From contig OZ024756.1 in the NCBI GenBank assembly GCA_964016885.1, positions 27,218,001-27,282,000 of the forward strand: 64,000 nucleotides of DNA, read 5' to 3'. This document shows positions 3,060-33,698 of the stretch, piece after piece (position 1 is the first letter of the stretch; each line of letters opens with the position of its first letter). Made by a program: the position numbers and the translations under genes. Source of the DNA: Eledone cirrhosa. Lineage: Eukaryota. A model generated the notes under the pieces. That model made no database searches, had not been told where the DNA came from, and saw only the letters and a program-made list of their open reading frames with translations.

Positions 3060-3690
3060 TAACGAAGGAAATGTGGTAAGGAACCAGGTGGACCATAACG
3101 CACCAAAGTACTCAATACTTGAGGTAGTAGAGTGGGTAATAGGAACCAGTAAGACCCCGACAGCTGAGCTCAAGCCGTTTCGACGGCTAATTCTGGACTA
3201 AATGAAAATTTATCCTGGTATTTAAATAGCCGATCTTCTCAAGGGGTAATTCCATATATGGTCAAAGTGATTGTCAAAAATCAGTAGTAATTCTGTGGTT
3301 GCAAATTAGTAGGGGAGATGGTGGCTAAACCTGCCAGTAGGAGAAAGAGGGGAGGGGGTGGAGTAGACCCAATCAAGCGTTGGTAGTGCCAGCTACAGCT
3401 GGGCATGAGGTCAAAGAAGATACAGGGGAGGGGGAGGGGGAGGGGGAGGAAGTCGGAACGGTAGGTAGAACAATGGGGGGTAGAAATAGGAAAGAAAAAA
3501 TACTGAGAGTGAAGAAAAGCAAATAAGTGTAAAGGAAAAAAGTAAAGTAAATTAAATTCTACGACCTAGGTGTCAGGCTATTGTTAGGCGAGAATAAAAT
3601 AAAGAAAGAAAGAAAGAAGTAAATAAATAAATAAATAAATAAGGAAATAAGTAAGAGAACTAGGTGGGACGGATAAGGCAAGGACCCTTA
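3060..3690 (-). mobile_element. Longest copy of family F (TA)n-embedded cassette (putative Penelope-like pseudo-LTR remnant)
   Basis: Shares its 3' end (...gtattgagtactttggtgcgttatggtccacctggttccttaccacatttccttcgtTA) with copies at 19641-19791, 35124-35322, 41731-41865, 47115-47292, 52136-52227, 53339-53536, 62773-62920 and 63562-63775; flanked by (TA)n. Confidence 0.7.
3154..3247 (-). ncRNA. Type I hammerhead with U3:A8 core and extended stem II, family F
   Basis: Reverse complement: acccc TTGAGAA ga(t)cggcta...inner hairpin...tagccgtc GAAA cggct tgagctc agctg TC ggggt. Confidence 0.78.
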
Positions 3691-3755
3691 TATATATATA
3701 TATATATATATATATGAGGTGTGAGAAAAACCACAAACCTTTCATCTCAATTCTA

Positions 3756-3791
3756 CTTTTGAAAAGCAGAACAACCGCGAAACCGGTAAAG
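3756..3791 (+). ncRNA. Minimal hammerhead with U3:A8 core, family E
   Basis: ctt TTGAAAA gcag aacaa ccgc GAAA ccgg TA aag; lies in a ~205 bp cassette (3720-3924) repeated at 39531-39743. Confidence 0.65.
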
Positions 3792-4024
3792 GAAACAAAT
3801 AAATATATATTTAAAAAAAAAAGACTCCAGTTGCATTTTCGATTTGATCTTTTTTCCTTATACTTTCACTCGTGTAGGACACCTCGGTTATTTTTCATTT
3901 TGTAAACAAAACCTCACTTTCTAATATATATACATATATAAAAGGTAAACAGAAATAATAACACAATCGGTACAGTATATGGGAGGAATATATTAGGTTA
4001 ACGCTTGACATAGCAGGAAGACGG

Positions 4025-4060
4025 TCTTAACGTTTCGGACTGTAGTCCTTCATCAGAAGA
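4025..4060 (-). ncRNA. Minimal hammerhead motif, family D
   Basis: Reverse complement: tctt CTGATGA a ggac taca gtcc GAAA cg TT aaga; palindromic AACGTT stem III. Confidence 0.78.
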
Positions 4061-4500
4061 AAGAATGAGAAATAAGATAGATTGTAGAGACGTCTTTAGA
4101 TAAAAATAACAGCTCCATTCATGTTGACATCTCATATACAAACATACTTACATACATACCTACATACCTACATACCTACATGCATACATACATACATACA
4201 TACATACATACATACATACATACATACATACATACATACATACATACATATGGATTGAGAGGGATGAGGCTGCGTAGTTACTGATAACGGGAACACAAAC
4301 AAGAGATAGAGATTTTCCCTTCATCAGTTGTCTACTACGGATCACGGATGTTTCAGCGCATTATAGACAATACATCTATCCTTAGCGCGCCCATAACATA
4401 TTATCAACAAGTTACGAGGGAACGAAAAGACGAAAAAGAGAAAAAAAAATATATATATATAAAGAATTCGAAGTTTGAAAGCCACGAAAATGCTGATTGG

Positions 4501-5317
4501 ATATATATATATATATATATATATACATATATATATATATATATATATATATATACTATATATATATACTATATATATATATACTATATATATATATACT
4601 ATATATATATACTATATATATATACTATATATATACTATATATATATACTATATATATATACTATATATATATACTATATATATATACTATATATATATA
4701 CTATATATATATACTATATATATATACTATATATATACTATATATATACTATATATATATACTATATATATACTATATATATACTATATATATACTATAT
4801 ATATAGTATATATATATACTATATATATACTATATATATACTATATATATACTATATATATACTATATATATACTATATATATATACTATATATATATAC
4901 TATATATATACTATATATATATACTATATATATACTATATATATATATATATACTATATATATATATACTATATATATATATATATACTATATATATACT
5001 ATATATATATATATATACTATATATATATATACTATATATATATATATATACTATATATATATATATATACTATATACTATATATATATATATACTATAT
5101 ATATATATATACTATATGTATACTATATACTATATATATATATATATATACCATATATATATATATATACCATATATATATATATATACCATATATATAT
5201 ATATATATATATATATATATATATATATACTATATACTATATATATACTATATATATTCTATATACACTATATATATATATATATATATATATATATATA
5301 TATATATATATATATAT
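4501..5317. repeat. Interrupted (TA)n microsatellite array
   Basis: (TA)n punctuated by single C residues. Confidence 0.95.
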
Positions 5318-5774
5318 GTAGGAGGTGAGTTTTATTGTAGTACAATAAAGCAATGCAGATATCGGATAAGAAGCACTCTACAGTTTGTGGGACTGGAGTA
5401 TGCATAATATAATATAATATATATATATAATATATAATATAATATATAATATAATATATATATATATACTAGGAAAAGAAATTCATAGTATTTGGAAATT
5501 TTTCCTTTAAAACATGATCTAAATTGTAAGTGTGTTATGTGAACAACCTCTGACCTGAGAATGTAGACCCCGACTTGGCTCTTCCATATATGGTTGGCTC
5601 TTCCATATATATTATATAACAGATGTACTGACGGGTTGTGACACCTGGCCTGGCACTGCTTTATATCTCAGGGATTATAGGGTAACATGTAAACCTAAAA
5701 TAATAAACTATCTATCTTACTTACTAAAATAATAAATTTTCTCTAAAATCAAATAAAAATAATATAAAAATAAT

Positions 5775-30874: not shown

Positions 30875-31402
30875 TTGGGGAGGGTCATATTTGTGTAATA
30901 TTGCCAGAATTAATAACAGAACACACTCACTGTCTGGTTGGTTTTCGCTTCTCGCTTCTGTGTCTTTTATATCGGTAATCTAATATACTCGGTCCTCAAT
31001 GTTGCCATTGACTGACCGGCGGTCAAAAATAATACAGATACAATATAGACACAAACACATATATATAGTTTATCATAAATCTTTCGTTGCACATCTGCAA
31101 CATCGTCAGAGATTTCGAATAAAAATGGCGTAGACATACAATACAACAGGAGGAAAATATAGCACTACTGACGATGTTGCAGATGTGCAACGAAAGATTT
31201 ATGATAAACTATATATATGTGTTTGTGTCTATATTGTATCTGTATTATTTTTGACCGCCGGTCAGTCAATGGCAACATTGAGGACCGAGTAAGTTAGATT
31301 ACCGATATAAAAGACACAGAAGCGAGAAGCGAAAACCAACCAAACAGTGAGTGTGTTCTGTTATTAATTCTGGCAATATTACACAAATATGACCCTCCCC
31401 AA
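30875..31402. repeat. Inverted repeat with 235-bp arms and 58-bp spacer
   Basis: 30875-31109 versus 31168-31402 with few mismatches; both arms begin at CTGACGA t gttgc agatgt gcaac GAAA. Confidence 0.9.
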
Positions 31403-32127
31403 GTATAACAATATATATATCCAAGATCTATATATATCCACTCCTCACAAAAATTCTATATCTCTGTGATGTAGTGTTTTTGCATAATATGCCACGAAAC
31501 TACGTAGTCGGGGAGTAAAGAAGGAATCTAGGTATGGTATATCTTATTATTAATTATATCTGTTTCTTCTCTCTTCATAATGTATTATATATATATATAT
31601 ATAATCTTTACTTCGGCCCTTGAAAAAATTGATTCCACTTCATTCACTCTCATCTCGGGAACAGTTTTGGATAGCGCTAGTTCGTAATTTAAATTCAAGA
31701 ATTTTATATTCTTCGAATGAAAAGAACCTTCTGACGAGAATCTTTCTTTGCAACGAAGGGCGTATGGCCTCCGTTTATTTTTGGGATTCGAAACCGATCG
31801 GGAAAGGTAACTATAGTAGGTAAAGTCAATTTTTTAAAATTTATTTGCTAAACCTTGTTTATATATATATATATATATATATATATATATATATATATAT
31901 ATATATATATATATATATCAGCACCCTAGTTTAGGTAAGTGATAGTAGGAACACTTGAACAGTGACCGTTAACACTTAATAGAATAGGAAACTTATTTAT
32001 TACATAACTAAATAAAGCGGTAAATACTCCCCGCACCTATATCCTCACTTGTGATTTGTTTACTTGATCTCACCATACCTCGCTTTTTCTTTAGTCTTAC
32101 CTATACTTTAACATTCCTCCATTCTGC

Positions 32128-32456
32128 CCCTTTTATATAAGTATTTACTATATCTGCCCGCTCCCTCAAACATAAACTTGATGGCCGCTCTGTTTAGCGA
32201 AAGGTTCATCCCTTTTATATAAGTATTTACTATATCTGCCCGCTCCCTCAAACATAAACTTGATGGCCGCTCTGTTTAGCGAAAGGTTCATCCCTTTTAT
32301 ATAAGTATTTACTATATCTGCCCGCTCCCTCAAACATAAACTTGATGGCCGCTCTGTTTAGCGAAAGGTTCATCCCTTTTATATAAGTATTTACTATATC
32401 TGCCCGCTCCCTCAAACATAAACTTGATGGCCGCTCTGTTTAGCGAAAGGTTCATC
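32128..32456. repeat. 82-bp tandem repeat, 4 copies
   Basis: Period 82 (tttt at 32131, 32213, 32295, 32377). Confidence 0.93.
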
Positions 32457-32612
32457 TCATTAGCACTCTTTTGAAAAGTCCGTAGTTTCGGTAAAACTTT
32501 GAAATAAACACTCACTGTTAATAACATATTTTAGCACTTTCAATTACTAAACACCACCTGGAGCAAGGGTTTAAATTTCAGCTTGATGAGCTGCAAGACT
32601 CGAGAAAGACTA

Positions 32613-32733
32613 ACTTTATTAGTATTATACAGACAATACTTTATTAGTATTATACAGACAATACTTTATTAGTATTATACAGACAATACTTTATTAGTAT
32701 TATACAGACAATACTTTATTAGTATTATACAGA
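32613..32733. repeat. 25-bp tandem repeat, about 5 copies
   Basis: Unit actttattagtattatacagacaat, directly upstream of the S1 SINE at 32735-32931. Confidence 0.92.
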
Positions 32734-33610
32734 AAGGCGATGGATTGGCAGTAGTATCGGTAGAGCGTCAGACACCATGCTTTGCAGCATAGAGTTATGG
32801 CCCTTTACGTTCTGAGTTCAAATCCTGTCGAGATTAATTTTGCTTTTCATCCTTACAGGGTCGATAAAATAAAATACCAGCAACACACTGGGGGTAATTG
32901 CTTGGCCTTGTACTAAAAGTAGAAATAATTATACAGATACTTAAATTTATCAAACCCGGAAGGACGACAAGCAACGATGAACCCCGATGGTGGGGTTTAA
33001 ACCCTTAAATTACGAAAATAAAAAATAAAATGTAAGATAACGCCAACTTAACACCAGAAAGAATTTGTGCGCCACTCTACCGATTCTGCCATTCACTGCC
33101 AAAAACCGTTCTAACGATTGTAAATAAATACAGGGTGTCTCATAAAAAACGTATACACACTTCAACAGCATTCTAATAAATATGTGTATACATTTTTTGG
33201 AAGATACCCTGTATATAGAGAGATAAAGATAGGATAAAAGTTGAAAATGTTTGAAGGAAGTGGAAGATTTTAGTATGGAGCTCTGACAGAGAACATCCTC
33301 CGTAACATTGGAAGATAAAGACAGAGAGAAAAGGTCAAAGAGTTGGATCTGACATTTTATGAAACTCCTGCCCCCCCCCCCCCCCCAAGTATGTGTGTGT
33401 GCTCGCGCGTGTGTGTTTGTGTGCGTGTGTAAGTGTGTGTAAAGGTGTTTTGTCTGCATGAGTAGGCGTAAGTCTATATTTCTGTGAATAAAATGTGAGG
33501 CATATGTATATATATATATATATATATATATATATATACATTATGAAGAGAGAAGAAACATTTAGATATAATTAGTAATAAAATGTATCATACCTAAACT
33601 GTTCCTAAAT

Positions 33611-33698
33611 TCCTCGACTACGTAGTTTCGTGGCATAAACAAAAACAATATATCAAAGATATAGAGTCCTTGCGAGGTCTGCCGACTTATCAAGAGGA
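33611..33698 (-). ncRNA. Type I hammerhead with U3:A8 core and extended stem II, family H
   Basis: Reverse complement: tcctc TTGATAA gt(c)ggca...tgccac GAAA ctacgtag TC gagga; 3' halves also near 31490-31515 (+) and 51782-51806 (-). Confidence 0.78.

Follow-up and report, generated by a model that had tools for sequence, protein, structure and literature searches.

The hammerheads of Penelope-type elements are usually described as minimal, slow ribozymes without tertiary contacts. The minimal Penelope-like hammerheads are reported to have no stable helix III, no recognisable tertiary contacts and an extra nucleotide separating position 9 from 10.1, and a long helix II, a short helix I, a U3-A8 pair and a helix II bulge have each been published for this group (PMC4209133). 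The U3-A8 pair is a known natural variant of C3-G8 (PMC3088659, PMC4209133). In other hammerheads, pseudoknots occur in about 40% of cases, and those between stems I and II are needed for fast cleavage (PMC3088659). The closest described fold is that of the atypical type III hammerheads from toad and termite hepatitis delta virus-like RNAs, Drosophila pseudoobscura and satCYDV-RPV (PMC7936874), in which it is helix I that bears a capped internal loop, whose partner is the terminal loop of helix II. Here, two hammerhead families, F and H, are analysed in a 64,000-nucleotide stretch of the Eledone cirrhosa genome (the window: assembly GCA_964016885.1, contig OZ024756.1, positions 27,218,001 to 27,282,000, forward strand). 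It is probable, though well short of certain, that both are predicted self-cleaving type I hammerheads of Penelope-type retroelements in which a pseudoknot joins the internal loop of stem II to the strand 5´ of stem I.

Both motifs were detected by a descriptor scan over both strands of the window, and the coordinates of their parts were assigned by hand. The family letters F and H come from an earlier reading of the same DNA (the original prediction), and the others (G, J, K, L, M, M3 and X) were assigned in this analysis. The stems quoted for F and H in the original prediction are present as written, each motif having a stem I of 5 bp, a GUC site and an insert of 37 nt (F) or 44 nt (H). Stem II comprises 2 bp, a bulged U and 6 bp in F, and 2 bp, a bulged C and 4 bp in H. 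The upstream strand that may pair with the H insert lies beyond the interval which that prediction had covered. The parts of the two motifs are as follows:

3154..3247, minus strand: family F type I hammerhead motif
3242-3236, minus strand: F core with U3-A8; cleavage predicted between 3159 and 3158
3161-3159, minus strand: F GUC site
3227..3235, minus strand: 5´ strand of F stem II, with G10.1 at 3235, the variable 10.2 at 3234 and the extra U at 3233, followed by the 6-bp stem
3189-3182, minus strand: partner strand of F stem II
3190..3226, minus strand: F insert of 37 nt, with a weak inner hairpin
3248..3254, minus strand: conserved strand 5´ of F stem I, whose pairing partner is the 3´ flank or 3199-3194
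33611..33698, minus strand: family H type I hammerhead motif
33693-33687, minus strand: H core with U3-A8; cleavage predicted between 33616 and 33615
33618-33616, minus strand: H GUC site
33684, minus strand: bulged C of H
33636-33679, minus strand: H insert of 44 nt
33700..33705, minus strand: 5´ strand of the putative H pseudoknot, 1 nt before stem I
33673..33678, minus strand: its putative partner, the 5´ strand of the stem II internal loop
33640..33672, minus strand: distal cap hairpin of H, 13 bp

F and H are type I hammerhead motifs. Both window copies have a Watson–Crick 3-8 pair, the G12-A15 box and a UH site, and the three-helix layout with an open helix I is accompanied by compensatory changes, from G-C to A-U in stem II in seven of 30 rows of the F-type alignment and from U-A to C-G in stem I in four of 28 rows of the H alignment. 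Self-cleavage after GUC is predicted for both. Helix II is present (6-8 bp), and G10.1 directly follows A9 and pairs with C11.1 in 28/30 F-type and 28/28 H rows. Helix III has 5-6 bp in F and is short and palindromic in H, and 54-62 nt separate the cores. The two families differ from the minimal Penelope-like hammerheads in having no nucleotide between 9 and 10.1 and perhaps, in view of the short palindrome of H, in having helix III formed. The presence of U3-A8 in place of C3-G8 in both cores was not mentioned in the original prediction.

The surrounding genome (3.0 Gb) is AT-rich and rich in microsatellites. The motifs are not products of chance, since an exact 16-nt F pattern gave 2,237 genome matches against none for the reversed control, and an exact 17-nt H pattern gave 6,430 against one. 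No Rfam hammerhead family matched the F or H motif at E<=10, and no hammerhead was found among the 150 listed of 332 Rfam matches to the whole window, those listed being microsatellite-driven. The minimum free energies are unremarkable (z-scores of 0.49 for F and -0.97 for H, in which the hammerhead is not the fold of lowest energy), so that the evidence for the structure comes from comparing copies.

In H, a 13-bp hairpin (95% of cells paired) closes the internal loop that the insert forms, and positions 33705-33700 are complementary over 6 bp to 33678-33673, with one nucleotide separating this pairing from stem I and one separating it from stem II. Over 28 rows, 96% of the cells of this putative pseudoknot are paired, and its strands have a mean column conservation of 0.95 versus 0.77-0.80 in the flanks and linker. 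There is variation in the outer pair, which is U-A in 19 rows, U.G in seven and C-G in one. The 6-bp duplex alone has a calculated energy of -6.9 kcal/mol. The original prediction had treated an inner hairpin as a property of F; F does have one (5 bp, 83% paired), but so does H, in which it is longer and has the better support.

A scan for long-spacer hammerheads in 1.9 Mb of genome sequence, unselected for pairing, gave three further families with the H layout, J, K and L. Family J (443 exact matches, unit of about 657 nt) keeps the full pairing at 23 of 30 loci, counted by hand. Both strands have changed in variant J3 (two tandem copies, L066), where a U-A pair has become C-G, and in J4 (L007), where two U-A pairs have become A-U, while the pairing register is shifted in J2 (L348). 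The two copies of K pair different sequences at the equivalent place, and L (255 exact matches) has an 8-bp stem II and, beyond it, a partner on the 3´ side of the loop. The pairing spans 6 bp in H, 5-9 in J, 5-7 in K, 6 in L, 7 in X (an older relative of F) and 4 in F. A homology between the tails of H and J was also considered but could not be demonstrated, 45 of 300 shuffles being as good.

Chance complementarity was assessed by shuffling each insert 1000 times and requiring a helix at most 3 nt from stem I and at most 4 nt from stem II. The number of shuffles with an equally good pairing was 2 for J1, 6 for J2, 11 for J3, 11 for L220, 16 for K1, 30 for L, 44 for J4, 46 for X, 47 for H2, 68 for K2 and 78 for H1, and 161-844 for three families with plain arms. 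Pseudoknot-stabilised hammerheads in the sense of Perreault 2011 have at least 4 bp joining helix II to the region of helix I. The pairings of H, J, K, L and X fall within this range, and F reaches 4 bp, which is the chance level. On these comparisons, support for the pseudoknot is good in H, J, K and L and moderate in X, whereas F itself gives none, and it is this pairing, rather than the bulge, that is likely the real shared feature.

According to the mechanism that we propose, the long stem II would begin as a helix and continue into an internal loop, closed by a cap hairpin, with the internal loop base-pairing with the strand just 5´ of stem I. The resulting pseudoknot would supply the tertiary contact between helices I and II, holding them parallel as the loop–loop contact of extended hammerheads does (by analogy with PMC3088659), and would speed cleavage at low magnesium. 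The suggestion that the bulge or insert replaces the loop I–loop II contact would not hold in that form if, as is likely, the insert of H carries the contact itself, as a base-paired pseudoknot.

Several results weigh against this fold. In F itself, 281 of 1000 shuffles were as good (430 for its sister copy L284), and the same applies to the long-insert families M (503) and M3 (812). The distance limits of the test were set after H, J, K and L had been seen, several of the shuffle p-values are only 0.03-0.08, and most families become weaker when the limits are removed (121 of 500 shuffles for H1). Furthermore, the five inner pairs of the H pseudoknot show no double-sided change and four of 28 rows break one; J3, J4, K1 and K2 each rest on one or two copies; and the L copies are old, many of them with single mismatches (without a formal count). 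The nested lowest-energy fold of H (-26.0 kcal/mol) lies below the constrained hammerhead (-21.5 kcal/mol, pseudoknot not counted). Finally, among the 100 F-type matches listed of 4,882, the core pair is C3.A8 in 19 and U3.G8 in two, a sign that selection on catalysis is relaxed in F lineages. These cores are also found in multi-copy F-type lineages, C3.A8 in L280, L281, L182, L245 and L290, and U3.G8 in L258, L326 and L335.

The upstream strand of F may instead extend stem I. Its four pairs with 3199-3194 are kept in 26, 30, 26 and 30 of 30 rows, and those that would lengthen stem I by pairing with the 3´ flank in 27, 27, 26 and 22. In family X, one pair is gained in the pseudoknot option and one is lost in the extended stem I, and related marine elements have an extended stem I. 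A pairing of the F insert with the 3´ flank of stem I was discarded, as this flank is variable and one of the pairs is formed in only four of 30 rows.

A further explanation is that bulge and insert are neutral, an inherited core module with freely drifting stem II arms and chance complementarity. The unremarkable folding energies are compatible with it, as are the long stem II arms of 26-39 nt without such pairing that are common in the genome and the short, unbulged hammerheads L195 and L222 of this genome, which also have U3-A8. We consider it very unlikely, because the pairing is found at the same place in four families of different sequence and both of its strands change among the J variants.

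The bulge was followed through the copies by a renewed search in which it was left free, the initial patterns having fixed it. This gave 4,882 F-type and 6,792 H matches, and the first 100 listed of each were counted by hand; the spacing of the patterns remained fixed, so that copies without the extra base were not detectable. The extra base is U in 99 of the listed F-type matches; in the listed H matches it is C in 87 and U in 13, and none of the 25 H2 copies (an older subfamily) that are intact and were found by a 3´ anchor lacks it. The register is another matter. The second stem II pair of F is A-U in 40 listed matches, C.U in 39 and U.U in 21, and it is formed in three rows of the 30-row alignment, whose rows were picked to span subfamilies. 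Since this pair is not Watson–Crick in 60 of 100, most F-type copies would have a G-C pair followed by a 2x1 loop. Thus, two pairs and a bulged pyrimidine, as the original prediction described both families, hold for H and for only the youngest F subfamily, and the conserved F-type trait, as read from the copies, is the G-C pair with one surplus nucleotide in the 5´ strand, most often within a 2x1 loop. The contigs of run X2 vary likewise at 3234 and 3242, but they are not independent, as they may derive from the same species or source. The 6-bp stem beyond the bulge is real, as indicated by family X (16 matches), where one G-C pair has changed to A-U and the stem is extended to 10 bp.

The long capped stem II is found without a bulge, and with a C3-G8 core, in families J, K and L, so the bulge does not define a subclass. 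In the F and H lineages, the extra nucleotide close to the base of stem II has been conserved, and the simplest likely explanation for its sharing, together with the U3-A8 core, would be common descent of the core module. No nucleotide alignment between the H unit and the F element was better than E 5.3. The proposal of an undescribed structural subclass therefore survives in altered form: no Rfam family matches and a subclass seems to exist, yet the bulge is not its definition, a bulge position that varies across copies, which the original prediction named as a ground for refuting it, is partly seen in the lost 2-bp register of F-type copies, and a long helix II, a helix II bulge and U3-A8 have each been published (PMC4209133).

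Family F lies in the pseudo-long terminal repeat (pseudo-LTR) of a young autonomous Penelope-like element with a tandem period of 3,542 bp. Its intact form carries one open reading frame (ORF) of 718 aa, in whose translation, read by eye, a reverse transcriptase (RT) precedes a GIY-YIG endonuclease at the C-terminus. An RWK-type motif (with Arg for Lys), a DKT motif and a CxCX5C linker are seen in the protein and CCHH was judged absent by eye. A Pfam scan of the ORF gave no families, and 2,155 homologues were found at E<=1e-20. Inverted, 5´-truncated copies occur, and the targets are (TA)n. The F element fits, on its protein features, the Hydra clade of Penelope-like elements (Craig 2021, PMC8557442), with which it shares the C-terminal GIY-YIG, DKT, CxCX5C and (TA)n targets; the Naiad clade was rejected because the endonuclease is C-terminal. 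It differs in its unit of 3.54 kb (usually below 3 kb in the clade) and in its variant rather than canonical hammerhead, all 26 Hydra rows of File S2 in that source having a C3-G8 core and a short unbulged stem II. Hammerhead form and length are described tendencies of the Hydra clade and not protein diagnostics. The F-type copies of the window are the following:

3060..3689, minus strand: 5´-truncated copy of the F element (3´ untranslated region and pseudo-LTR), between (TA)n runs, ends approximate
3193-3211, minus strand: where the 5´ end of most short F-type copies falls, within the insert
35102..35322, no strand: head-to-head F-type pair, both members cut in the insert
53339-53546 and 63552-63798: further head-to-head F-type pairs

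F insertions have two fixed 3´ ends, at +20 and about +99 from the cleavage site (3139 and 3060 in the window; L003-L030), and their tail of about 80 nt compares with 30-40 bp described for Penelope-like elements. A first look at the genome gave 34,600 candidates for Hydra-type RTs, and other families of these, with 33-59% identity, were present in random stretches (L212, L214, L216, L218, L222, L224, L225, L228, L231, L232).

Most F insertions end within the ribozyme. In 1.064 Mb of unselected sequence, 42 of 75 F copies start between -53 and -35 from the cleavage site, six extend past the core and five begin at -3 to 0, the last figure indicating that most F templates were uncleaved, as has been reported for a lizard element whose hammerhead depends on protein and can be dispensed with for insertion in vitro (PMC11167929). 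Copies with the 3´ end at +20 and at about +99 share the position of the 5´ stop. The depth of X2 contigs drops 16-fold across 3195-3209 (summed depth, not copy number), and a pattern for the 3´ half of the older subfamilies gave 41,519 matches, far above any 5´-half count. Among 20 ORF-bearing F copies that reach the upstream ribozyme, none ends at -53 to -35 and 15 continue at least 740 nt further upstream, which speaks against a purely structural block and against transcription from one start only; the cause may be an arm bound by protein close to the start site of the RT. For H2, 26 of 30 loci run through the insert, and three of five sampled H copies start at -67 to -62, so this pile-up is not clearly shared with H. 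In F-type copies near 1529-1573 of L251 and near 1502 of L255, a long run of T follows on from the 5´ end at about -44, which looks like slippage of the RT at a template end or stall. Family G was tried as a control for 5´ ends, but this comparison was void because the reference copy was apparently cut at the same place.

Two alternatives to the pseudoknot fold bear on these ends. According to the first, the bulge or insert replaces the loop–loop contact or binds the RT-endonuclease protein of the element and so aids ribozyme folding. The constancy of the extra nucleotide in F-type and H2 copies favours it, and a protein bound beside the RT start site would yield the F pile-up within the insert, which is independent of the 3´ end and absent from ORF-bearing copies. 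Moreover, a lizard Poseidon hammerhead cleaves only with its protein, but the protein-binding region of that element is the first 172 nt of the ORF (PMC11167929). Together with the long arms of J, K and L that have no bulge, the failure of the 2-bp register in most F-type matches listed and the H2 copies that are seldom cut in the insert, this makes the explanation doubtful.

According to the second, F has a ribozyme that serves as a scaffold, slow or dispensable, and an insert whose conserved 3´ half acts at another level, as a transcription start or as the joining site of two nascent complementary DNAs. The C3.A8 and U3.G8 cores of multi-copy F lineages and the few copies that start at -3 to 0 agree with it, and catalytic mutants of one Penelope-like hammerhead left insertion in vitro unaffected (PMC11167929). 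The commonest F 5´ end, at -41, is an A in a pyrimidine-A-G-U context. This context resembles the metazoan Initiator consensus. A transcription start at -41 was weakened as a candidate by the ORF-bearing copies, none of which ends there, and it is kept as a rival. Stems I, II and III are kept across F subfamilies with compensatory or wobble changes, and neither a scaffold nor a start site would explain H, J, K and L. We therefore judge this account unlikely.

The pseudoknot fold may also be read as a switch. In H, the upstream strand can also pair with the 5´ strand of stem I, and a switch is possible because the nested fold is lower in energy than the constrained hammerhead. The upstream strand would be off when bound to the 5´ strand of stem I and on when bound to the capped loop of stem II, and a folded or protein-bound arm would stop the RT of the element, explaining why most F-type insertions (tens of thousands) end inside the insert. 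That these families form a switchable class of type I hammerheads in Penelope-type elements, whose arm gates RNA processing and the length of new insertions, is a speculative proposal to which we give a low probability.

Family H belongs to a non-coding unit of 591 nt, whose copies form tandem and inverted arrays ending at (TA)n; four consecutive units without a coding ORF are present in L065. In the window, three sets of H-type copies are found:

33539..34071, minus strand: one 591-nt non-coding H unit, which stops at a (TA)n run and has an approximate 5´ end
31443..31603, plus strand: 5´-truncated H2 copy (older subfamily) with its start close to the putative pseudoknot strand
51694..51917, no strand: inverted pair of 5´-truncated H-type copies

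These features recall the non-LTR retrozymes (PMC7229834; 10.64898/2026.07.22.740005), non-coding tandem units with one type I hammerhead each that are proposed to be moved by Penelope-like elements. H is likely retrozyme-like, moved in trans by a Penelope-type protein. H (591 nt) and J (about 657 nt) exceed the 170-400 nt reported for retrozymes.

With regard to known folds, the present one, as proposed, resembles the atypical type III hammerheads (PMC7936874) in that the proximal stem is short, the 5´ strand of an internal loop forms Watson–Crick or wobble pairs with the other arm and a cap hairpin measures some 20 nt or more. It differs in being type I, with the capped loop on helix II predicted to pair with the open 5´ strand of helix I, and in belonging to genomic retroelements. 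It would be the mirror image of the type III form, working like it without being a member. The PK hammerhead (PDB 8YDC, PMC11300833) also has a pseudoknot in place of loop–loop contacts, but there the pseudoknot replaces helix II, whereas here helix II would be intact and the pseudoknot lie beyond it. The text of Perreault 2011 (PMC3088659), leaving aside its figures and Dataset S1, describes loop-to-flank pseudoknots and weak stems II of 1-2 bp, with no capped stem II loop. The exact fold was not found in the literature searched, a coverage that excluded figures, datasets and most subscription papers. What would be new is the type I frame with a capped stem II loop pseudoknot; its ingredients, namely the long helix II, U3-A8, the bulge and the pseudoknot, are each known.

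Related elements in marine metagenomes (76 loci) gave 27 hammerhead matches in 22 loci, 25 with C3-G8 and two with G3-C8; none is bulged after the second pair, none has U3-A8 and the spacer is at most 25 nt. The rarer G3-C8 core occurs in two type I copies of one such locus (L079, 2765 and 5268, minus strand). Viral contigs yielded no related locus, no match to the H-type pattern and four matches to a generic pattern, none of which forms the stems.

Other hammerhead families were also found. Family G comprises type I hammerheads with a C3-G8 core, an 8-bp stem I and a stem II hairpin of 26-36 nt, and other Hydra-type ORFs have related motifs downstream (L225, L231). Family M is similar to L, with spacers of 57-62 nt (L215 7070-7255, L184 5016-5276, L259, L367 and L427), and may pair about 12 nt further upstream than the shuffle test allowed. 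M3, also found in L435, is hammerhead-like, with a 57-nt spacer and no detectable upstream pairing. A tRNA-like Rfam match of 34.5 bits is probably the head of a short interspersed nuclear element. The corresponding features of the window are:

1520-1584, 2843-2908, 22316-22380 and 22794-22852, plus strand: family G
2754-2690, 10687-10621 and 22754-22690, minus strand: family G
34762-34677, minus strand: M3
695-766, minus strand: tRNA-like match, within an inverted repeat at 655-870
1386-1824, 8203-8421, 26464-26833, 27182-28509, 49504-50035, 60843-61226 and others, both orientations: a very abundant repeat of about 190 nt

Hammerheads of this kind may be more widespread than reported. Rfam missed both motifs, and short-spacer descriptors would miss them too, so elements reported without a hammerhead or as a 'half core' may hold the long-arm form. 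File S1 of PMC8557442 marks eight Naiad elements as 'HHR half core' (HHR, hammerhead ribozyme), with 35-50 nt between the halves, and these may hold long-arm hammerheads like the present ones. Against the usual description of Penelope-type hammerheads, a base-paired contact that a capped stem II carries seems to serve several families of this one genome, and such a contact is directly testable by compensatory mutation. Finally, the series of 3-8 pairs (U-A, C.A and U.G) and the pile-up of F 5´ ends offer two handles on the role of cleavage in transposition.

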